This document shows positions 40,377 to 52,142 of a stretch of DNA of 64,000 nt, piece after piece. Source of the stretch: Smithellaceae bacterium. GTDB lineage: Bacteria; Desulfobacterota; Syntrophia; Syntrophales; Smithellaceae. The number at the start of each line of letters is the position of its first letter. Position 1 is the first letter of the stretch. The DNA lies in assembly GCA_035416785.1 (NCBI GenBank), contig DAOLNX010000001.1:9790-73789 (forward strand), read 5' to 3'. A program made the position numbers and the translations under genes. Under the pieces are notes generated by a model. It saw only the letters and a list, made by a program, of their open reading frames with translations. It ran no database searches and had not been told where the DNA came from.

Positions 40377-41117
40377 ATGTGTCAAAACCCGGCCAAAAGC
40401 TTGGCGGTAACGGTTATGATCCAGGAAAGGATTCCAAACGTGAATATTCAAACGGGAAATCATTCCCATCAATGTCCGGGACTGCTTTTTGGTACGTTGC
40501 TTCGAATAAGATTTGAAGGGTTCAGCACGATTCTGACCAACCTGATCGGCTTGGAAGAGGGATTGCATCTGATTATCAAAACTCCGCCGATCCCGGAAAT
40601 CGGAACAAAGCTATTTCAGAAAAATAATATTATTATTCAGTATTTGTATTCCGGACAAGTTTTCGGTTTTCGAACAACCTTGCTTGGTTTGGTCAATGAT
40701 CCTTTCCGTTATGCCATCTTGGCGTATCCGACGAAGGTCGAAAAAGTCAACATCCGTAAGCACGAAAGAATTAACTGCATGCTGCCCGCCAAACTTCAGA
40801 TGTCCCGTGAAACTTTTGCCGTTTTAATTGAAGACATCAGCGAAGGAGGCTGTTATTTTGAAGTAACCGCTTCCAAGGATGGAAAATTTCCTCTTATGCG
40901 CATCGGAGAGGAGGCGCAGCTCATTGTGACTTTACCGGGCATGATGGAAAGTATCACCCTCATTATTCTGGTGCGAACCATTAAGTGCGATATTCGCACG
41001 ATGAAAATCGGTGTTCAGTTCAAGCGTCCGGATAAACGAAGTGATGAAGTCCTAAACTTTGAGGCCATTAAAAATTACATTGAACATTTTCAGATGAGGG
41101 ATTGGTCGGAAACATAA
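40377..41117 (+). CDS. PilZ-domain (c-di-GMP-binding, YcgR-like) protein
   Basis: RxxxR motif RKHER and DISEGG in the C-terminal half. The start is uncertain (40377 or 40416). Confidence 0.7.
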   Translation: MCQNPAKSLAVTVMIQERIPNVNIQTGNHSHQCPGLLFGTLLRIRFEGFSTILTNLIGLEEGLHLIIKTPPIPEIGTKLFQKNNIIIQYLYSGQVFGFRTTLLGLVNDPFRYAILAYPTKVEKVNIRKHERINCMLPAKLQMSRETFAVLIEDISEGGCYFEVTASKDGKFPLMRIGEEAQLIVTLPGMMESITLIILVRTIKCDIRTMKIGVQFKRPDKRSDEVLNFEAIKNYIEHFQMRDWSET

Positions 41118-41119
41118 CT

Positions 41120-42604
41120 TCAGCCAATGTCTTTGAAAATATTAACACCGGCCTGATGCTTCATTTCCTTGCGGTAACGCTCTTTCCAGCCTTTATCCGT
41201 CAGGTTGTCTCTGAAAATAAGTTTCAGAAGCGGTTTGACAGCGTATGTCCAGATCGGGATCCAAAGATGTCCCTGACTTTTGGATTGCGCGGAAGGTTCC
41301 CACCAGCCCAGAATTTTCTGACGATGCAGCCAAACCAGGTATTGCAATTGATCGGTGTCGAGATGCTTGGTTTTGACATTGGCCCAGATACCGTTGTACC
41401 ATTTGTAATCCTCGGGATTTGTGACCAGTCCTTGTTCCAGAAGTTCCCTGCGCATTAATGTTTTTGGATAGGGGGTCAGAATCTGGCAATAGGCGCTGTC
41501 GGCATCCAATGATTTCAGAAATCTGTAATTTTCCATAATGTCTTCTTCATTATCGTCCGGAAATCCGAAAATAAGTCCGGCAACCACCATAATGTTGTAT
41601 TTGTGGCATAATTGCACCGCCTGACGTGAGGCGTTGACGATGTCACCTTTGTGTGCCGCTACCAGATTTTTCCTCGATACATTTTCAATGCCCAGAAAGA
41701 TGGATCGAATTCCCGCCAGAGACATTTTGCGGACCATCTCTTCGTTCCTGGACATGGAAACGCAATCTGCCTGAATAATGAATTTCAAGCCCCGGTAATT
41801 GCGAGCAATAATGGCGTCACAAAGGTCGATCACCCGTTCCGGATTCAGCACCAGATTATCATCCGAGACAAAAATCCAGCGTGTCCGACGCTTGAAATAA
41901 ATGTCGTCAATATCTTCCAGCACTCTTTGAATTGGAAAGGTCCGAAACGTCTTACCATACATATGCTTCATACTGCAAAAGGAGCAGGCGCGCGTGCAGC
42001 CGCGAGAGGTTTCCATCACCTCGACTTTAGACAGCATGACATGATAGCCGGACGTTAAACGTCTGTTATCCCGGATGGGAATTTTAAGACGGGCAAGATC
42101 AAGGAGTTTTCCTGCCGGATTATGGATAAATTGATTCCTATGTTTATAGGACAGAGACGGAATATCCTGGACCCGGCCCGCGCCGGAAAGAGACTGAATC
42201 AGACGCCGGAAGCATTCTTCCCCTTCTCCACGGACCATATAATCAATTAGGCCGGATTCTGCGGAGGAGGCAATTTCTTCGTACATCAGCGTTGCATGAT
42301 AACCGCCGATCACAATGGTCGCTTCAGGTAAGAGACGCTTGATCAAACGTATCAGCGCCACGCAGGTTTCATACTGCCAGGCCATAGCGGATAACCCCAC
42401 GACTTGCGGACGGATTTTCAGAAGAATTTTTTGCAGGTACCGGGCGAGCTGTTTGCGTTTCCGGATCAGATCGGCAATAAAAACTTCATGTCCTTCATCA
42501 ATGTTTGCTCCGACACTGGCGATACCGCAATTGGGCATGTGAAACGCGCTTTCACGCATGATGACCGGGGCCACGTCCGGCATGGACAGAAGAAGAATTT
42601 TCAC
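41120..42604 (-). CDS. B12-binding-domain radical SAM protein
   Basis: N-terminal B12-type fold (VGLSAMAWQ...IVIGGYHATL) and radical SAM motif SRGCTRACSFCS. GTG start after GAGAGG. Confidence 0.85.
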   Translation of the reverse strand: MKILLLSMPDVAPVIMRESAFHMPNCGIASVGANIDEGHEVFIADLIRKRKQLARYLQKILLKIRPQVVGLSAMAWQYETCVALIRLIKRLLPEATIVIGGYHATLMYEEIASSAESGLIDYMVRGEGEECFRRLIQSLSGAGRVQDIPSLSYKHRNQFIHNPAGKLLDLARLKIPIRDNRRLTSGYHVMLSKVEVMETSRGCTRACSFCSMKHMYGKTFRTFPIQRVLEDIDDIYFKRRTRWIFVSDDNLVLNPERVIDLCDAIIARNYRGLKFIIQADCVSMSRNEEMVRKMSLAGIRSIFLGIENVSRKNLVAAHKGDIVNASRQAVQLCHKYNIMVVAGLIFGFPDDNEEDIMENYRFLKSLDADSAYCQILTPYPKTLMRRELLEQGLVTNPEDYKWYNGIWANVKTKHLDTDQLQYLVWLHRQKILGWWEPSAQSKSQGHLWIPIWTYAVKPLLKLIFRDNLTDKGWKERYRKEMKHQAGVNIFKDIG

Positions 42605-42999: not shown

Positions 43000-44268
43000 G
43001 TGGCTGAAAGAAGGAAAAGGATGACCAGAAAAAAAAAATCTGCAAGCAGAAAGCGCTCCGTGTCGGATGTTCCTCTTCTGGGATTACTATCCGTCCTGTA
43101 TTTTGCGCAAGGTTTGCCTTCAGGACTTCTGGGGAAAGCCCTGCCCTCCCTTTTACGCGAACAGGGGATATCCTTGTCCGCTATCGGTTTTACTGCGATG
43201 CTAGCCCTTCCGTGGACATTGAAATTTCTTTGGGCGCCTTTTCTGGACCGATTCTGGACGAGGCGTGGCTGGCTTTTAACACTCAATCTGACAACCTGCC
43301 TCATCATGCTATTGATCGCTGCCCGCGATTTCAGTCTGTGGGTAACACAATGTTTTTCTGTCCTGCTGGTTCTACTTTTCGGAATGAATCTGGTAGCCGC
43401 TACTCAAGACATTGCCACAGATGCCCTGGCGGTCAGCAGGCTTTCTCCTTCCCATCGAGGTTTGGGAAACAGTGTTCAAGTAATCGGTTATAAAGTCGGG
43501 ATGATGATCGGGGGCGGGCTTTTGCTGTGGCTGGTTTCCCGCTTCGGGTGGCCATGTTCCTATGGTGCGCTTGCTCTTTTGATCATCCCGGTTCTCATTT
43601 GTGTCTGGTTCATGAAAGATGAATCATCTTTGGATGAATGTACGGCCAATCGTCCAGTGTGGTGTGGCTTTCGGGGGTATCGGCATTTATTTGCCGATTT
43701 TCTGCACCGTCCACGGATGGGATGGTGGCTGATGACCGTGGCTTTTTTCAAAGCGGGCGATTCGCTGGCGTCGCGAATGATCGGGCCGTTTTTGACCGAT
43801 CAGGGAATGCCCCTCGCGGACATTGGACTTTTAACGGGGATCGTCGGTGCTTTTGCCGGATTGGCCGGCGCTCTCCTGGGTGGTTTGTATCTGACGCGCT
43901 GGTCGCGACGCAGTGCACTCATTTTATTTGGTGGTTTACAGGCGGCGGGTTTTGCCGGCTATCTGCTGATTTCCAACGGTTCATGGAGTGGTAATAATCT
44001 TTTGTATGCCGTTATTTGCGTGGAACAGTTTGCCGATGGACTTTCAACGGTAGCGCTGTTTACGGCGATGATGGATGTTTGCCGTCCACAATCGCCAGGT
44101 TCTGATTACACCCTACAGGCGGCATGTCAGGTGACGGTTTCCGGCCTGGCTGCGCTGGTGAGTGGCATTTTTGCACAGGCCTTCGGATATGCCGCTCTTT
44201 TTGCCACTGGAAGTTTTGTAACGCTTTGTGCTCTTGTGCCGGTTTTGATGTTTTATCGGAACAGGTAA
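43000..44268 (+). CDS. MFS transporter (AmpG/PAT-like)
   Basis: About 12 hydrophobic segments with AmpG-like N-terminal motifs (YFAQGLPSGL, PWTLKFLWAPFLDR). Start at GTG 43000 or ATG 43021. Confidence 0.8.
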   Translation: MAERRKRMTRKKKSASRKRSVSDVPLLGLLSVLYFAQGLPSGLLGKALPSLLREQGISLSAIGFTAMLALPWTLKFLWAPFLDRFWTRRGWLLTLNLTTCLIMLLIAARDFSLWVTQCFSVLLVLLFGMNLVAATQDIATDALAVSRLSPSHRGLGNSVQVIGYKVGMMIGGGLLLWLVSRFGWPCSYGALALLIIPVLICVWFMKDESSLDECTANRPVWCGFRGYRHLFADFLHRPRMGWWLMTVAFFKAGDSLASRMIGPFLTDQGMPLADIGLLTGIVGAFAGLAGALLGGLYLTRWSRRSALILFGGLQAAGFAGYLLISNGSWSGNNLLYAVICVEQFADGLSTVALFTAMMDVCRPQSPGSDYTLQAACQVTVSGLAALVSGIFAQAFGYAALFATGSFVTLCALVPVLMFYRNR

Positions 44269-44285
44269 ATTCATTTGCTGATATT

Positions 44286-44541
44286 TCAAGAGCTTAACGG
44301 TTTCCGGATTTTCATTCCGATGAGCAATACGTTATGCAACATGGGCATAACGGCGACCGCGGTCTCACACATTAAGATCCATGAGCGTCATGTGGTAGTG
44401 ATTAGGGAGCATTACGGCAATGGTCATCAATCCCAAAGGTGGCATAACCGTTTTGAATCCGGCGGCTTTGAGAGCACTTTCATGGCTCCAGAAAGTTTGA
44501 GGAGTCTTGGGGTGTATTATTAATGCTTTGATTTTATTCAT
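44286..44541 (-). pseudogene. 5' remnant of a B12-binding radical SAM gene (frameshifted and truncated)
   Basis: MNKIKALIIHPKTPQTFWSHESALKAAGFKTVMPPLGLMTIAVMLPNHYHMTLMDLNV* is a textbook N-terminus for this family. Weak homology (VLLIGMKIRK) continues in another frame, then stops. No radical SAM core follows. Confidence 0.6.
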
Positions 44542-44738
44542 ATTGTCATCATTGAGTCATTTTGTGAATTTACTATAACTAAAGGCATAACATATGCCAA
44601 TATATAAGCATATAAATTAGCATATATAAATGCTATAATAATAGCCTTATTGTGGCAAATAAAACGTTATAATAATATAGACGAGATGATGGCATTTAAT
44701 ATATGTAAAAATTAACAAAAAAAATTCAGGAGGGGACA

Positions 44739-44969
44739 ATGACTGTTATTCGGAAAGAGCAAAAAGAACGATTAAAAAATGTTTTGCTAAGGGTAAGCAT
44801 ACCCGCGCAATTGATGAGCGAATTAAAAAAAACGCAAAAGCTTTGCCGGGAGAATAAATTATATTTTGATGTTAAGCCGGATATTATTGCTGCCGTGGAA
44901 AAAGCAATTGAAGAGGCGTTGGTTATTGTCAGTGAAGAAAAGAAAAGACAGTCTGAAAAAAATGCATGA
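44739..44969 (+). CDS. Hypothetical small protein (possible ribbon-helix-helix)
   Basis: 76 aa. A strong ribosome-binding site AGGAGGGGA lies 4 nt upstream. VLLRVSIPAQLMSELKK resembles an RHH beta-strand/helix. No further support. Confidence 0.4.
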   Translation: MTVIRKEQKERLKNVLLRVSIPAQLMSELKKTQKLCRENKLYFDVKPDIIAAVEKAIEEALVIVSEEKKRQSEKNA

Positions 44970-45149
44970 AGGATGATCTGTGAAGAAAATGCTATGACTC
45001 AAACGGTTTTTTTAAGCATATTTTTTTTGCCGGTCATCCTTCATGAGGATATTTTCGTACAGGAAAAGAGCCATGATGATTTCACGCCTGGCCTGATTGG
45101 AAAGCGAAGCGATACCTCATCATGGCTTGGGTTCAATTTTTTTTGATGG

Positions 45150-45464
45150 TTAATTGGCGATAGCGGTTCCTACGGCCTTTCCGTCCTTGAAAAGGATGAC
45201 ATACATCATATCCATGGTGTTTGAAGACTTGTAGTAGCGCTCTTCCAGGCTGTTGCTCAGTTTTACAATTTTCACCGGTTTCACAAAATCACTTTCGATA
45301 TCGGCTACTGATTTTCCGGACAGAGACATTGCCGGCATTAATCGCACGCTTTCATTGGTTGGCAACGTTCCTTCCGATGCAAATGCTGAAAAGCTACCCA
45401 GAGTCAGAGCCATCACGGATGCAAGGATCACAACTGCTTTTTTCTTCTTTGATAAATTTTTCAT
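45150..45464 (-). CDS. Small secreted protein of unknown function (copy 1)
   Basis: 104 aa. Signal peptide MKNLSKKKKAVVILASVMALTLGSFSAFA/SE, GGAGGA ribosome-binding site and a sigma-54 promoter upstream. Identical to 55911-56225. Confidence 0.65.
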   Translation of the reverse strand: MKNLSKKKKAVVILASVMALTLGSFSAFASEGTLPTNESVRLMPAMSLSGKSVADIESDFVKPVKIVKLSNSLEERYYKSSNTMDMMYVILFKDGKAVGTAIAN

Positions 45465-45526
45465 TTTATTTCCTCCGATTTTTTTATTTTCTTTTTTTTC
45501 ATTTTTTTCTCTTTGTCATTATCATC

Positions 45527-45542
45527 AGCAAGGGTTGTGCCA
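45527..45542 (-). promoter_or_regulatory. Sigma-54 (-24/-12) promoter, copy 1
   Basis: The minus strand reads TGGCAC-AACCC-TTGCT, about 60 nt upstream of the start codon at 45464. Confidence 0.6.
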
Positions 45543-45807
45543 TAGAAGAATAGATAAAATATAATGTTTATTATCTAATATTTACGAAGATAACGCCTGC
45601 AAAGCCGCTTATGGATGTGCAGAATAGCGGAGAAAAGGTGTTTCATTATGGTAAAATATTATCATTATGATATAAGAAAGGCAGAAGGTTTGGTATTTCT
45701 AAAGAATATGTTGCTACGAAGCTGTGCCAAATTGATTTCCTGATCAGCTTTCTTTTCCATGCCGGTACCGAAGGTCTTAAGCAGTAAATAAGTGGTAAAA
45801 ATCGGAT

Positions 45808-45850
45808 CAGAAAAGACAAAAGGTTTAAGCGATAATCGCCTAAACCTTTG
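45808..45850 (-). terminator. Terminator hairpin downstream of tRNA-Arg(CCT)
   Basis: The minus strand reads AAAGGTTTAGGCG-ATTAT-CGCTTAAACCTTT followed by TGTCTTTTCTG. Confidence 0.5.
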
Positions 45851-45857
45851 TTTTTAT

Positions 45858-45934
45858 TGGTGCCCCTGGCGTGAGTCGAACACGCGGCACACGGATTAGG
45901 AATCCGTTGCTCTATCCTACTGAGCTACAGGGGC
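45858..45934 (-). tRNA. tRNA-Arg (anticodon CCT)
   Basis: A 77-nt cloverleaf folded by hand: acceptor GCCCCTG/CAGGGGC, D arm GCTC/GAGC, anticodon stem ACGGA/TCCGT with loop TTCCTAA, T arm GCGTG-TTCGACT-CACGC. The CCA end is encoded. Confidence 0.93.
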
Positions 45935-46781: not shown

Positions 46782-47492
46782 TCAGTGCATGATTTCGGGT
46801 AAGCCGGGCCAGTTTTCATTGTTGATTGGTTTGGGATAACCAGAATCAGTTCTGTCTGCTCCGATATCGTAACGAATATATGCGTTACCTGTGAAGAAAT
46901 AGGCTTTTCCGTTGCCCCAGTTCACGGCGGTATCGATTCCGTCCATCCAGGGGATGCCGGGCCAGGTTTTGTTGTTGATCGGTTTGGGATAACCAGGGTC
47001 AGCTCTGTCGGTTCTGATGTCGTAACGGATATACTGGGGCCCCTTAAAGAAGAAAGCTTTTCCGTTTCCCCAGTTTACGACGGCGTCGATTTCGTTCCAG
47101 GGGATGCCGGGCCACGTTTCGTTGTTGATCGGCTGGGGATAACCGGGATCTATTCTGTCGGCGCTGATATCATAGCGGATATACTGGTTAGCCTTGAAGA
47201 AATAGGCTTTTCCGTTGTCCCAGTTTACGGCAGCGTCGATTTCATTCCAAGGGATGCCGGGCCAGGTTTCTTTATTAATCGGTTTGGGATAACCGGGATC
47301 CATTCTGTCGGCCTTGATATCGTAGCGGATATACTGGTTAGCCTTGAAGAAATAGGCTTTTCCGTTATCCCAGAGCACGACGGCGTCAATGGATTTTCCG
47401 TTGCCGAAACTTTCGGCAAAAGCGGGTACTCCCCTTACGATACTGAACAGCATAAGTATCAGGAACAAATGGGTGTAGATCGATCTTTTCAT
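46782..47492 (-). CDS. Secreted four-repeat hemopexin-like (beta-propeller) protein
   Basis: Signal peptide ending AFA/ES, then 4 x 50-aa repeats of the form IDAxVNWxNGKAYFFKxxQYIRYDIxxDRxDPGYPKPINxxTWPGIPW. Confidence 0.85.
   Translation of the reverse strand: MKRSIYTHLFLILMLFSIVRGVPAFAESFGNGKSIDAVVLWDNGKAYFFKANQYIRYDIKADRMDPGYPKPINKETWPGIPWNEIDAAVNWDNGKAYFFKANQYIRYDISADRIDPGYPQPINNETWPGIPWNEIDAVVNWGNGKAFFFKGPQYIRYDIRTDRADPGYPKPINNKTWPGIPWMDGIDTAVNWGNGKAYFFTGNAYIRYDIGADRTDSGYPKPINNENWPGLPEIMH
46788..47387 (-). repeat. Intragenic 150-bp tandem repeat x4 (hemopexin blades)
   Basis: The period of 150 nt is visible at DNA level. For example, GATATACTGGTTAGCCTTGAAGAAATAGGCTTTTCCGTT occurs twice, 150 nt apart. 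Confidence 0.8.
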
Positions 47493-47574
47493 AGCAGGCC
47501 CTCCTGGTTAGTTTATGCATCTTCGATGCAGATGCGAGGAATGATAATCAATCATCATATGTAAATACGAAGCC

Positions 47575-48294
47575 TTAACCTCCAAGGTACGCTTCTCGGA
47601 CTCGGGGATTTCCCGTCAGCTCTTTGCCTGTTCCGGAAAGCACGATGTGCCCGTTTTCCAAAACGTATCCCCGCGAGGCGATATGCAAGGACATGTTGGC
47701 GTTTTGTTCAACCAGCAGGAGGGTTTTTCCAGCAGCGTTGATGTCCTGGATGATCTTGAAAATATCCCGTACCAAAACGGGCGAGAGGCCCATGGAAGGT
47801 TCATCCAGCAGGAGCATCTGTGCATCCGTCATGAGTGCGCGCCCCACAGCCAGCATTTGCTGCTCGCCGCCGGAAAGCATGCCGCCTTGCTGTCTGCTTC
47901 TTTCTTTGAGGCGGGGAAACAGGTCATAGACGTGCAGGAGATCATCTCGGATCTTTGCCTTATCTTTACGTTGCCATGTAGCCAGTAGCAGATTTTCCCT
48001 GACGGTGAGGTTGCCAAAAATCCCTCGACCTTCCGGGACATGAGCGATACCTGCGGCGACAATTTGATCGGTGGTTCGGTTCTTCAAATTTTGTCCTGTA
48101 TACGTGATGGTTCCGGAAAAAGGAATCAGGCCGGAGATGGCTCTCAGAATGGATGATTTGCCCGCGCCGTTGGCACCGATGAGAGTAACGATTTCTCCAT
48201 GTGCGACGTCGAACGAGAGATGGTCCACGGCCTTAATGTTGTCGTAAGAGACCTGAAGATCGATGACGGACAGCAGACATTTGGAGAGAATCAT
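47575..48294 (-). CDS. livF: Branched-chain amino acid ABC transporter ATP-binding protein
   Basis: Walker A GANGAGKSS, signature LSGGEQQML and Walker B LLLDEPS. Confidence 0.9.
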   Translation of the reverse strand: MILSKCLLSVIDLQVSYDNIKAVDHLSFDVAHGEIVTLIGANGAGKSSILRAISGLIPFSGTITYTGQNLKNRTTDQIVAAGIAHVPEGRGIFGNLTVRENLLLATWQRKDKAKIRDDLLHVYDLFPRLKERSRQQGGMLSGGEQQMLAVGRALMTDAQMLLLDEPSMGLSPVLVRDIFKIIQDINAAGKTLLLVEQNANMSLHIASRGYVLENGHIVLSGTGKELTGNPRVREAYLGG

Positions 48295-49061
48295 GATGTA
48301 ACCTCCTCGCCCAGATAAGCTTCCATTACTTTGGGATTGGTTTGGATTTCAGCCGGTAGCCCGGCGGCAATGTTCGCGCCGAAATCCAATACAACGAGGC
48401 GTTCACAGATTCCCATCACGAGGCGCATCTGATGTTCGATTAGAATAATGGTGACAGAAAATGTTTTACGAATCCAGTGAATCAAATCCATCAGTTGCAG
48501 GATTTCATTGGGATTCATGCCGGCGGCCGGTTCATCGAGCAAGAGCAGTTTGGGTTTTGTGGCCAAAGCCCGGGCCATTTCCAGGCGACGCTGTAAACCG
48601 TATGGCAGATTCTTAGCCTTTTCGCCTGATGCGTCATCAAGATTGAAAATCGACAGTAGGTCGAGCGACTGGGTGGTGATACGGTTTTCCTCAGTGCGGA
48701 ATCGACCGATATGCAAAAGTGCTTCGATGGGTGTGTAGGCAATCTGGCCGTAATGCGCAATGCGGATGTTGTCCAGAACGGAGAGTTCACGAAAGAGGCG
48801 GATGTTTTGAAACGTCCGGGCAATGCCTAAGGAAGTAATCTGGTGTGGGGTCAGGCCGACCAGTTCCCGGCCGCTAAGTTTGATGCTGCCTTCGCTTGCG
48901 CGATAGACGCCGGTGATTAAGTTGAAGACGGTGGTTTTGCCCGCGCCGTTGGGGCCGATGATGCCGATCAGCTCCTGCGGTTTTACGGTAAAGCTAAAAT
49001 CGGATACTGCGCAAAGGCCGGCAAAGCGGTGTGTGAGGTTGATGATTTCAAGGAGCGGCAT
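48291..49061 (-). CDS. livG: Branched-chain amino acid ABC transporter ATP-binding protein
   Basis: Walker A GPNGAGKTT, LLLDEPAAGMNP, and a LivG-type C-terminus (EAYLGE). Confidence 0.9.
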   Translation of the reverse strand: MPLLEIINLTHRFAGLCAVSDFSFTVKPQELIGIIGPNGAGKTTVFNLITGVYRASEGSIKLSGRELVGLTPHQITSLGIARTFQNIRLFRELSVLDNIRIAHYGQIAYTPIEALLHIGRFRTEENRITTQSLDLLSIFNLDDASGEKAKNLPYGLQRRLEMARALATKPKLLLLDEPAAGMNPNEILQLMDLIHWIRKTFSVTIILIEHQMRLVMGICERLVVLDFGANIAAGLPAEIQTNPKVMEAYLGEEVTS

Positions 49062-50091
49062 CCGGAGCCTCCTTTTTCTTCTGACGCCAGCGTTTTTCCG
49101 TAATCAGGTCGCGAAGCGGCTCAAACAGCCGGACTTCTTTTAAACCCAGAATGCCGTGCGGGCGGTAAATCATCAGAAGAACCAGCATAAGCGGCATAAA
49201 AACCATTCGCCAGACACCCAGCGGGCGCAGGATTTCCAGCAGGATGGTGTAGATTACAGCACCGACGATCGATCCGGAGATAGAAGCGATACCGCCTAAG
49301 TAAACCATAATCAGAATATCGGTGGACTTGATTATGTCGAACATGCGTGGGTTGATGAACTGCAGGGCGTGTGCAAACAGGCCCCCGGCAATGCCTGCGA
49401 AAAAAGACGAAACGACGAACGCAATCATTTTTACCTGGCGCGTATTGACACTCATCAGGTCGCTCGCGATTTCATCCTCGCGGATAGACAAAACACCGCG
49501 TCCGAAATTCGAATAAACCAGGTTACGGATGACCCAAACGGAAAGGGCCGCCCAGAAAAAAACCCAGGGCAGCGTAGTGAGCTTTTCCATACCTAACAAT
49601 CCGCGCGGTCCGCCGACAGCATCGATATTTTCCAGCACGGATTTCACAATCATGCAAAAGGCCAGCGTGACGATGGCGAGATAATCGCCGCGCGTTTTGA
49701 AGGAAGGGATGGCTACAAGAAATCCGATCAGTCCTGCGCCCAAACCGCCTGCCAGAATCGCCAACGGAAAAAGGAAGTCGGATGCTCCGACGGGGAAAAC
49801 GTGCACCGTGAGGAGCGAGGCGAGATAAGCGCCCACGGCCATGAAGCCGGCATGGCCGACGGAAAATTCGCCCATATAGCCGTTGATCAGATTCAGGCTG
49901 ACGGTGAGAATAATGTTGATACCGACATAAATTAAAATCAGTTGAAGGTATAAATCCAGAAAATCGTAGATGTTGATGGCGACGCAAAACGAAAGCCCCG
50001 CGATCATGAAACTAGGCCAGAAAAAGGTGTGTCCGGTCAGCGTGTGCCAGCGTTTCAGCAGTGCCTGATAAATGGAAAGAACAGTTGCCAT
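49048..50091 (-). CDS. livM: Branched-chain amino acid ABC transporter permease
   Basis: Polytopic membrane protein with LivM-like motifs (GYMGEFSVGHAGFMAVGAY). Confidence 0.88.
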   Translation of the reverse strand: MATVLSIYQALLKRWHTLTGHTFFWPSFMIAGLSFCVAINIYDFLDLYLQLILIYVGINIILTVSLNLINGYMGEFSVGHAGFMAVGAYLASLLTVHVFPVGASDFLFPLAILAGGLGAGLIGFLVAIPSFKTRGDYLAIVTLAFCMIVKSVLENIDAVGGPRGLLGMEKLTTLPWVFFWAALSVWVIRNLVYSNFGRGVLSIREDEIASDLMSVNTRQVKMIAFVVSSFFAGIAGGLFAHALQFINPRMFDIIKSTDILIMVYLGGIASISGSIVGAVIYTILLEILRPLGVWRMVFMPLMLVLLMIYRPHGILGLKEVRLFEPLRDLITEKRWRQKKKEAPDAAP

Positions 50092-50093
50092 GA

Positions 50094-50969
50094 TTATACC
50101 TTTTGCGGCTGGGGTTTTCCCAGGATGCCGTAAGGCCGGAAAATGAGAAGAATCAAAAGCAGGGTGAAAGCCACAAAGTCGCGATAAGTGGAGGGGAAAA
50201 ACGCGGCCACCAGAATTTCCACACCGCCCAGGATAAAGCCGCCGATCATAGCGCCGCGGATGTTGCCGATGCCGCCGACAACCGCGGAAATAAAGGCTTT
50301 CCAGCCGACCATGATGCCCATATACGGATCAATGACCGGATAAGCGAGTCCATACATCATTCCGGCTGCGCCTCCCAGGCCCGTACCGATGGCAAAGGTC
50401 AGCGAGATGATTTTATTGACCGGCACGCCCATCAGCGGAACAATGGTCTTGTCCCAGGATATGGCGCGCATGGCCATGCCGGCCTTGGTATGCTGGACGA
50501 CAAAGTCCAGAATCAGCATCAGAATGAGAGAAAGGAGGATGACAATGACTTGCAGAGACGAGATGGAAAGCGAGCCGACGGTCCAAGTGGTGTTGGTCAA
50601 AAGCGCCGGGATGTGTTTGGGGTAGGGAGACAAAGCCAGTGTAAAGTTTTCCAGAAAGAGACCGACGCCCAGGGCCGTGATGATGGCGGAGACCCGCGGG
50701 GCGTTGCGCAAGGGCTTGTAGGCCATCCTTTCAATGATGACGCCCAGAAAGGCCACGCCCAGCATGGACAATAAAAGCGTCGGAATAAAGGATAGGTTCA
50801 AATATACGGCCAGAAGGAAGCAGAAGAATGCGCCAACCATGAACAAGTCGCCATGGGCAAAATTGATCATGGTCAGAATGCCGTAAACCATTGTATAGCC
50901 CAGGGCAATCAGGGCGTAGATGCTGCCCAACTGTAGGGCATTGAGTGCTTGCTGAAAAAAATAGGCCAT
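50094..50969 (-). CDS. livH: Branched-chain amino acid ABC transporter permease
   Basis: N-terminus QQALNALQLGSIYALIALGYTMVYG is typical of LivH. Confidence 0.9.
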   Translation of the reverse strand: MAYFFQQALNALQLGSIYALIALGYTMVYGILTMINFAHGDLFMVGAFFCFLLAVYLNLSFIPTLLLSMLGVAFLGVIIERMAYKPLRNAPRVSAIITALGVGLFLENFTLALSPYPKHIPALLTNTTWTVGSLSISSLQVIVILLSLILMLILDFVVQHTKAGMAMRAISWDKTIVPLMGVPVNKIISLTFAIGTGLGGAAGMMYGLAYPVIDPYMGIMVGWKAFISAVVGGIGNIRGAMIGGFILGGVEILVAAFFPSTYRDFVAFTLLLILLIFRPYGILGKPQPQKV

Positions 50970-50975
50970 AAATGT

Positions 50976-52142
50976 TTAGGGTTTGGCGTTGGCAAACCAC
51001 GTAAATTTGCCATCCCTAATTTTTAAAATGACCGCACTTTTCACCGGGTCGCCTGAGCCTTCCTGAAACTGCATATTGCCCGTCACACCTTCATGCTGCG
51101 GAATTTTGGCAAGGGTGTCACGCACTGCCTGACGGTTGTTCTTTCCGGCGGTTTTGATGGCTTTCCAAAGCAATCCGAAAGAGTCATACGTCAAAGCGGC
51201 AACGTCATCCGGTGTCGTACCGTATTTGGCTTTATAGTTGGCGATGAATTTCTTGGTGACATCTGTCGCCGCGTCGGCGGCGTAATGGGTGCTGAAATAG
51301 TAATCATTGCAATCGGCGCCGCAGAGCTTGACCAGATCGGAGCTTCCCCAGGCGTCGGCGCCGATGAACGGCACGGTGATGCCCAATCGTTTGGCCTGCT
51401 GGATTTGCAGAGGGATTTCGCTGTAGTAGTTGGGCAGAAAAATGATTTCCGGCCCGGCCTTTTTAATTTTGGTGAGCTGCGAGGAAAAATCCTTGTCATT
51501 GGTGGTGTAGGTTTCAAAAGAGACCACTTTGCCGCCGTTTTTTTCGTAAACGTCTCTGAAAATCTCGGCAATGCCCTTGTTGTATTCGGATGCAACGTCA
51601 TAAAGCACGGCTGCTTTTTTCAGATTCAAATGATTCAGGGTAAATTTGGCCAGAACGCCGCCCTGGAAGGGATCGATAAAGCAGGAGCGGAAAACAAATT
51701 TTTTAGGAGCCCCTGTCTTAGAATCCAGCGTTGTTTTGGGAGCGGTTGACCAGGGGGTGATCAGCACGACTTTACTGGATTCGGCAATTTCTGCTGCGGG
51801 CAGAGCGTAACGGCTGGCGTTTGGACCGATGATGGCGAGGACCTTGTTTTGTGTGATCAACTTCTGAGCCGCCGAGACCGACTGATCAGCTTTTCCTGCA
51901 TTGTCCTCGATGATCAGTTTAACTTTATATTTCTTATCACCCAATAGAATGCCGCCTGCGTCGTTGATTTCGGCGGCGGCCATTTCCGCCGCATTTTTAC
52001 AGGATGCGCCGACAGCGGGTATATCGCCCGTCAGTTCAGCAATGACGCCGACTTTGATTTGGGAAGAATCCTCTTTGCCGCAACTGCAAAGACCAAGAGA
52101 GCAAATCACCAAAAGGATTATTGAAACAATCGTTTTTTTCAT
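50976..52142 (-). CDS. ABC transporter substrate-binding lipoprotein (LivK/LivJ family)
   Basis: Lipobox LGLCSCG and a type I periplasmic binding protein sequence. It is the first gene of the liv-type operon. The ligand is not assignable. Confidence 0.85.
   Translation of the reverse strand: MKKTIVSIILLVICSLGLCSCGKEDSSQIKVGVIAELTGDIPAVGASCKNAAEMAAAEINDAGGILLGDKKYKVKLIIEDNAGKADQSVSAAQKLITQNKVLAIIGPNASRYALPAAEIAESSKVVLITPWSTAPKTTLDSKTGAPKKFVFRSCFIDPFQGGVLAKFTLNHLNLKKAAVLYDVASEYNKGIAEIFRDVYEKNGGKVVSFETYTTNDKDFSSQLTKIKKAGPEIIFLPNYYSEIPLQIQQAKRLGITVPFIGADAWGSSDLVKLCGADCNDYYFSTHYAADAATDVTKKFIANYKAKYGTTPDDVAALTYDSFGLLWKAIKTAGKNNRQAVRDTLAKIPQHEGVTGNMQFQEGSGDPVKSAVILKIRDGKFTWFANAKP

Follow-up and report, generated by a model that had tools for sequence, protein, structure and literature searches.

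A stand-alone hemopexin-repeat protein from a Smithellaceae bacterium and its place in a bacterial propeller family

What does a hemopexin-type propeller do in an anaerobic syntroph when no enzyme is attached to it? The question is raised by a gene on the minus strand, at positions 46782–47492, of a 64,000-nucleotide stretch of DNA (contig DAOLNX010000001.1, the whole stretch analysed being referred to here as the window) from a bacterium of the Smithellaceae, a family placed in the Syntrophales, Thermodesulfobacteriota. The identity of its product, here called the HX protein, as an exported stand-alone hemopexin-repeat protein is essentially certain, and a role as a binding module is likely by comparison with its relatives. 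The reading that we favour, to which we assign a probability of roughly 55%, is that of an exported, non-catalytic, multivalent binding module whose most likely ligand would be a glycan or a peptidoglycan-associated polymer.

Architecture and fold of the HX protein

The coding sequence (46782–47492, minus strand, with the stop codon at 46782–46784) specifies a pre-protein of 236 amino acids with an ATG start, and is documented by the list of open reading frames (ORFs), by its Pfam matches and by a 100% identical protein that had already been deposited (P0001). A Shine-Dalgarno-like AGGAGG (47500–47505, minus strand), read from the sequence, stands 7 nt 5' of the ATG. Inspected by eye, the N-terminus, MKRSIYTHLFLILMLFSIVRGVPAFA followed by ESF, displays a basic n-region, a hydrophobic core and an A-F-A site, with no lipobox Cys. 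From these features, residues 1–26 (47415–47492, minus strand) are predicted to form a Sec (type I) signal peptide cleaved after A-F-A. A hydrophobic N-terminal segment ending in AxAE is common to the homologues (n = 34 aligned), and in the structural model residues 2–25 form a lone helix, followed by a linker (residues 26–29) with a predicted local distance difference test score (pLDDT) below 50. By the usual sequence rules, export through a cleavable Sec signal peptide is thus predicted. Only 8 residues separate the signal peptide from the first blade.

The remainder of the chain (residues 35–236) is made up of four repeats of 50 or 51 residues, so that the signal peptide and the four ∼50-residue repeats described in a first-pass annotation of this DNA are both borne out. 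Blade 1 (residues 35–84; 47241–47390) is delimited by the Pfam stretches and contains the model strands 36–40, 44–49 and 52–57; blade 2 (residues 85–134; 47091–47240) is 88% identical to blade 1 at the amino acid level and 87% at the DNA level; blade 3 (residues 135–185; 46938–47090) has 51 residues; and blade 4 (residues 186–236; 46785–46937) includes a short C-terminal helix, all four being encoded on the minus strand. At the DNA level, Tandem Repeats Finder delineates a tandem repeat at 46803–47387 with a period of 150, 3.9 copies, 82% matches and a score of 721. Four stretches of the protein match the Pfam Hemopexin family (PF00045; E = 5.6e-51, 170.7 bits against a cutoff of 21.3). The Pfam scan found no second domain, that is, no protease domain, no Peptidase_M10 and no PA-IIL, in agreement with the earlier description of the protein as stand-alone and without an attached protease; no NCBIfam model fits it, and a family-profile hmmsearch of the six-frame translation found no second hemopexin ORF in the window. 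The predicted propeller has a mass of ∼24 kDa and an isoelectric point of ∼5.2, with 19 Asp and 7 Glu, and carries three Asp per blade in the 3–4 loop.

Sequence searches against the PDB place the protein squarely among hemopexin-like domains. The best matches are to MMP-14 (8e-22) and vitronectin (1e-19), the latter alignment spanning residues 31–232 and all four blades, and further matches are to MMP-2, MMP-1, MMP-12, MMP-13 and hemopexin itself; plant hemopexin-fold albumins are marginal matches (E = 1e-3 to 0.04). An AlphaFold2 model built from a 35-sequence alignment has a mean pLDDT of 93.3, a predicted template modelling (TM) score (pTM) of 0.83 and four strand groups. When it was compared with the PDB using Foldseek, the top 30 matches were all hemopexin-fold structures, the best being 3c7x (TM score 0.82, normalised to the target; root-mean-square deviation 2.1 Å; 32% identity), and non-hemopexin propellers ranked lower (TM score <0.45). 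On the strength of this model, we are confident that the four repeats would form one closed, four-bladed propeller of the hemopexin type. The assignment to hemopexin blades made in the first-pass annotation is thereby confirmed: neither the Pfam search nor the structure prediction pointed to another propeller family or to a non-hemopexin fold.

In hemopexin-fold proteins, the Asp of a DAA-type motif lines the central channel. The HX protein has such a motif where the innermost strand of every blade begins (IDAVV, IDAAV, IDAVV and IDTAV, at residues 35, 85, 135 and 186), and D85, D135 and D186 vary little or not at all among 35 homologues. Among solved relatives, vitronectin hemopexin-like domains bind Ca2+ and Na+ (PDB 7rj9, 7u68), and in the plant proteins CP4 and LS24 the channel is occupied by Ca, Na and Cl (PMC6934871). 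Because an Asp is kept in every blade and solved relatives hold Ca2+, Na+ or Cl-, it is reasonable to infer that the channel of the HX protein would be filled with ions as well. In animal hemopexin-like domains, a single disulfide joins blade I to blade IV. By sequence composition the entire HX protein contains zero Cys, and the blade I–IV disulfide is therefore absent.

A bacterial family and its domain fusions

The HX protein is one of many. It is a member, with no difference, of the RefSeq/PGAP family of 'hemopexin repeat-containing proteins', which includes HQM44257.1, HOI73644.1 and members from Nostoc, Streptomyces and Maridesulfovibrio. The cluster of P0001 at ≥90% identity brings together HQM44257.1, 'hemopexin repeat-containing protein [Smithellaceae bacterium]', and a 'hypothetical protein [Syntrophaceae bacterium]', and hundreds of other family members are 50–70% identical to the window protein. 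A word-indexed protein search returned at least 878 proteins at E ≤ 1e-3, the best 120 all with E < 1e-66, and an exhaustive search of 50%-identity representatives returned 3,513 clusters at E ≤ 1e-3, 613 of them at E ≤ 1e-30. When one genome per species was scanned with search patterns (185,579 species representatives), relatives were found in at least 214 species. Their hosts include Syntrophales, Geobacter, Desulfovibrionaceae, Alpha- and Gammaproteobacteria, but also Acidobacteriota, Bacteroidota, Actinomycetota (Arthrobacter, Kitasatospora, Mycobacterium), Myxococcota, Planctomycetota, Spirochaetota and Bacillota; 11 plasmids bear relatives under the same RefSeq name.

The bacterial hemopexin family is thus sparse per genome yet phylogenetically broad, and it is already named. 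The view, repeated in the first-pass annotation, that bacteria hold only scattered examples is outdated by these numbers, and hemopexin repeats should rather be seen as a bacterial family of considerable size, comprising both exported proteins and fusions to other domains. The window protein and its family being already known and annotated, their novelty is low. Photopexins have been described as the first prokaryotic hemopexin-like proteins (PMC2422844), and full-text literature searches yielded, apart from mentions of these and the plant structures, no experiments on stand-alone hemopexin proteins of bacteria, nor any family member that seems to have been characterised experimentally; bacterial hemopexin propellers will matter only once their ligands are determined. 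A link to phages or endolysins was considered and rejected: there was no tblastn match in 50,697 phage records, and the only viral fold matches were to the matrix metalloproteinases (MMPs) of insect viruses.

The clearest indication of what these propellers do comes from the proteins into which they have been built. Close propellers (∼50–70% identity) are fused to a CsgG/TolB_N/LpoB-like N-terminal domain, which occurs in 9 of the best 120 matches, and to Phage_lysozyme, NLPC_P60, CAP, Trypsin_2, FecR and DUF4114 domains. In 90 multi-domain representatives, the partners include Peptidase_M23, Amidase_2, PG_binding_1, Peptidase_M10, M35 and C1, as well as PI-PLC-X, PLDc_2, Laminin_G_3 and WSC. 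An extreme case is P0179, a TcA-like Tc-toxin subunit of 4,751 amino acids with VRP1, ABC_toxin_N, Neuraminidase-like and TcA_TcB_BD domains and at least 10 hemopexin stretches, an arrangement that suggests propellers inserted as receptor-binding domains. Other giant proteins of ∼3,400–5,000 amino acids (P0196, P0220, P0227, P0235, P0258, P0264 and P0265) have 9–12 matched hemopexin stretches each.

Since relatives fuse the propeller to secreted enzymes and toxins, where only a targeting role fits, the HX protein would itself be a binding module, and partners as varied as peptidoglycan hydrolases, proteases, lipases and Tc toxins suggest a general targeting module. Its role may be analogous to the exosite role of the MMP hemopexin domain. 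The recurrence of lysozyme, NlpC/P60, M23, Amidase_2, peptidoglycan-binding and LpoB-like domains among the partners weakly indicates a cell wall or envelope polymer as one ligand class; for the HX protein itself, an envelope glycan or peptidoglycan is the likeliest ligand, though a guess. We picture the protein as being exported to the periplasm by default, possibly with onward release, where the propeller would be stabilised by ions in the central channel in place of the blade I–IV disulfide. It would show four near-identical copies of the conserved, charged WGNGK and D-x-x-D-R-x-D loops on one face, the 1–2 and 3–4 loops being inferred to lie on the same side from the generic topology of hemopexin blades. 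Because each of the four near-equivalent blades carries both loops, a repetitive ligand, of the envelope or extracellular, would be bound multivalently, with a protein partner as the alternative.

Several points weigh against this proposal. The fusion partners are very heterogeneous, ranging over peptidoglycan hydrolases, proteases, lipases and toxins, and favour a binding module far above any one ligand; the majority of family members have no partner domain; gene neighbourhoods show no consistent functional clue; and the ligand cannot be read from the HX sequence. The conserved residues are, moreover, for the most part those of the structural hemopexin motif, and their conservation may therefore stem from folding rather than binding; the placement of the loops on one face would follow from generic topology, not from the coordinates of the model. 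A wider proposal, that bacterial propellers with near-identical blades are widespread, unrecognised multivalent envelope- or glycan-binding modules, lectin-like and cell-wall-targeting, whose four-fold symmetry is kept by ongoing intragenic gene conversion, strikes us as doubtful. Were it true, free exported copies would work at the cell surface or in the periplasm of syntrophic bacteria, where they could for instance contribute to remodelling peptidoglycan or, within syntrophic aggregates, to adhesion between cells and to the matrix.

Alternative roles, origin and genomic context

Serum hemopexin clamps haem between two propellers via two His ligands (1qhu/1qjs), and some plant hemopexin-fold proteins have been reported to bind haem. 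Given these precedents and its family-level homology to hemopexin, the HX protein might scavenge haem or iron, a role that has been put forward for serum hemopexin and, by extension, for the photopexins. The latter are believed to take part in iron scavenging (PMC2422844), but this role is itself a prediction. The HX protein, moreover, has a single domain with no Cys, and its His residues are confined to residue 8, in the signal peptide, and residue 236, so that the mature chain keeps one, its last residue; no conserved His, Cys or Met column is found in the 35 homologues, and no haem or iron uptake genes adjoin the gene. The haem ligand put forward in the first-pass annotation is consequently ruled out in its hemopexin-style form, since a single propeller with no usable His excludes the bis-His mode as judged from sequence; other modes, e.g., via Tyr, fall outside this exclusion, and a haem or iron scavenger of any kind appears very unlikely. 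Somewhat better matched, though still improbable, is a binder of small cations or polyamines akin to the plant LS-24/PA2-type albumins, acting via the acidic central channel or the loops. These are likewise stand-alone single propellers with no disulfide, LS24, CP4, chickpea albumin and Dolichos DC25 are all fold matches (TM score 0.72–0.76), LS24 occurs as spermine-bound dimers (PMC6934871), and the Asp-rich, low-pI composition of the HX protein would suit such ligands. In sequence, however, the MMP and vitronectin domains are far closer and the plant proteins only marginally similar; the latter are seed proteins of the cytosol, in contrast to the HX protein with its predicted export, and the fusions to secreted hydrolases favour macromolecular targets.

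Among such targets could be a protein. An adaptor or regulator working through protein-protein contacts, which would attach in trans to an enzyme that is secreted or periplasmic, much as TIMPs and substrates are bound by MMP hemopexin domains, is rather unlikely. In its favour, the complex of the MMP-2 hemopexin domain with TIMP-2 (1gxd) is among the structural matches, and a propeller fused in cis to so many enzymes could work in trans as a free copy. Yet no neighbouring enzyme gene is conserved across orthologues, and four near-identical blades suit a repetitive ligand better than one asymmetric interface. Another candidate role concerns a liv-type ABC transporter (47575–52142, minus strand) for branched-chain amino acids or similar substrates, of which the HX protein, as the product of the last gene of the operon, might be an accessory, ligand-capturing part. 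The set lies upstream of the HX gene and comprises a Peripla_BP_6 binding protein (50976–52142), two BPD_transp_2 permeases and LivG-like and LivF-like ATPases (E = 4.9e-85 and 2.3e-74 for the LivG and LivF models, both under the equivalog cutoffs). The HX gene follows directly on the same strand, 82 nt after the LivF-like gene, and scanning this gap (47493–47574) revealed no promoter-like or terminator-like site and an unremarkable fold (z-score -0.37); terminator candidates downstream of the HX gene are weak (fold z-scores -1.55 and 0.07), and co-transcription with the liv set is possible. The same arrangement recurs in two further contigs only, but both encode a 100% identical protein and come from the same population. 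Among the encoding contigs of four homologues that we inspected, those of orthologues with 59–69% identity have neighbours of other kinds, unrelated to one another (MoxR/VWA and MFS genes; unknown genes and an aldo-keto reductase; amino-acid oxidoreductases), and among 80 genome loci searched separately by tblastn with all five liv proteins, livH/M/K homologues were found at 0 and ABC ATPases at 1. The operon also has its own Peripla_BP_6 substrate-binding protein. Of the placement at the end of a liv operon, as first annotated, the position and strand hold, but the association does not extend beyond contigs of the same population; it is incidental, a functional link was rejected, and an accessory role in the transporter can be regarded as scarcely credible. 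Least probable of all is that the gene was recently acquired from a eukaryote, with a hemopexin or matrixin gene of an animal or plant as its source. It was in eukaryotes that the family first became known, and its bacterial distribution is patchy at 214 of the 185,579 species representatives. Against this, the nearest relatives are hundreds of bacterial proteins at 50–70% identity, compared with ∼30% for the best eukaryotic matches in the PDB, and bacterial members have architectures of their own and lack the eukaryotic disulfide. The GC content of the HX gene (0.489) and that of its third codon positions (GC3, 0.60, against 0.59 in livF and 0.58 in livK) match those of the neighbouring genes and give no compositional sign of recent transfer, leaving the horizontal acquisition suggested earlier without support from composition.

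The near identity of the blades, on which the proposed multivalent binding depends, was followed through 35 aligned proteins (140 blades), for which the consensus blade is IDAAVNWGNGKAYFFKGGQYIRYDIKADRADPGYPKPINNETWPGLPW. Blades of one protein share a mean identity of 0.66, those of different proteins 0.60 at the same position and 0.58 at different positions, so that position makes hardly any difference between proteins, and 42 of the 140 blades have their nearest neighbour in their own protein. In the window protein this holds for blades 1 and 2, which are mutually nearest at 88%, whereas their closest counterparts among the blades of other proteins reach 82% and 80%, the other pairs being 67–76% identical at the amino acid and 76–82% at the DNA level. 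The DNA identity of 85–90% that had been estimated for neighbouring blades therefore applies to blades 1–2 (87%), and not to blades 2–3 (82%) or 3–4 (78%). Of 47 codons, blades 1 and 2 differ at 9 synonymously and at 6 non-synonymously, and their homogenisation is for this reason not recent. In the orthologue from a Smithella metagenome-assembled genome (L003, 5340–6056; P0004), it is blades 2 and 3 that are identical, over 150 of 150 nt; in that from a Syntrophales metagenome-assembled genome (L004, 8001–8717; P0130), the same two blades agree in 143 of 150 nt and 50 of 50 amino acids. Either figure may be affected by an artefact of short-read assembly. With blades 1–2 as the top pair in the window gene and blades 2–3 in these two, different blade pairs have thus been homogenised in different lineages. 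As for the recent expansion or concerted evolution that the first-pass annotation had read from the repeats, homogenisation does occur in the family, as the Smithella gene demonstrates, but it is not recent in the window gene. Near-identical blades of this kind offer a clear case from nature of a propeller evolving through the amplification and homogenisation of its blades.

All-vs-all clustering of the ORFs at the 80 loci yielded a sole conserved block, LysM-NlpC/P60 | MtgA-FprA-HX-rubrerythrin-...-MutS-MltB-like, found at ∼14 Syntrophus-clade loci around a paralogue of 243 amino acids. This paralogue (L019–L034 and L061; Syntrophus/Syntrophaceae) has an insertion in blade 1; a flavodiiron protein precedes it, and a rubrerythrin, a small membrane protein, MutS and an MltB-like protein follow. 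Three of the neighbours are peptidoglycan enzymes, all the neighbours having been named by reading their sequences rather than by profile searches. As functional evidence the block was set aside, being a housekeeping mix that probably reflects relatedness. The conserved repeats also generate spurious long ORFs, antisense or in other frames, within hemopexin genes (47225–47419, minus strand, in the window, and at ∼23 related loci), which cluster as a false 'family' in such neighbourhood analyses.

Elsewhere in the window, the region 44270–45934 holds a tRNA-Arg (CCT) gene (45858–45934, minus strand) and an adjoining stretch of low GC content (31–41% against 47% for the window), which may be a small integrated remnant at the tRNA. 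Among the orphan small ORFs of this stretch are one of 104 amino acids with a signal-peptide-like N-terminus (45150–45464, minus strand) and one of 76 (44739–44969, plus strand), neither with a Pfam or NCBIfam match. Further along are a major facilitator superfamily (MFS) transporter (43000–44268, plus strand), which scores 220 bits against the AmpG muropeptide family and 185 bits against the RhtX/FptX siderophore family, both under the curated cutoffs; a B12-binding radical SAM protein (41120–42604, minus strand), BchE/HpnR-like but far under the equivalog cutoffs; and a PilZ/YcgR-like protein (40377–41117, plus strand).

Comparison with known hemopexin-fold systems

Of the known systems, the C-terminal HX/PEX domain of the MMPs (MMP-14, 3c7x; MMP-2, 1rtg and 1gen) shares with the window protein the fold, the four PF00045 blades of ∼45–50 amino acids and the DAA-type motif at the start of each, and serves in the non-catalytic binding of substrates and partners. 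The window protein differs in having no matrixin catalytic domain, no hinge and no blade I–IV disulfide, in being bacterial with a signal peptide of its own, and in its blades, which are far more alike (67–88% amino acid identity). The vitronectin hemopexin-like domain (6o5e, 7rj9, 7u68) aligns over all four blades and holds Ca2+ and Na+ in its channel, but is part of a multidomain animal glycoprotein and has long insertions and disulfides. Serum hemopexin (1qhu, 1qjs) belongs to the same repeat family and has the same blade fold; it consists, however, of two propellers with a linker and a bis-His haem clamp, in contrast to the one propeller without a usable His described here.

The plant albumins and lectins (LS-24, 3lp9; CP4, 3oyo; chickpea, 3s18 and 3v6n; Dolichos DC25, 6ix1) resemble the window protein in being single propellers of ∼225 amino acids, with the TM scores given above, but are seed proteins that lack a signal peptide and are only 22–24% identical to it. 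The Photorhabdus photopexins PpxA and PpxB and Plu1645 are likewise bacterial hemopexin-repeat proteins. As described in PMC2422844, photopexins have two HX domains and a PA-IIL lectin domain and belong to an insect pathogen, whereas the window protein comes from an anaerobic syntroph and has one HX domain and no lectin part.

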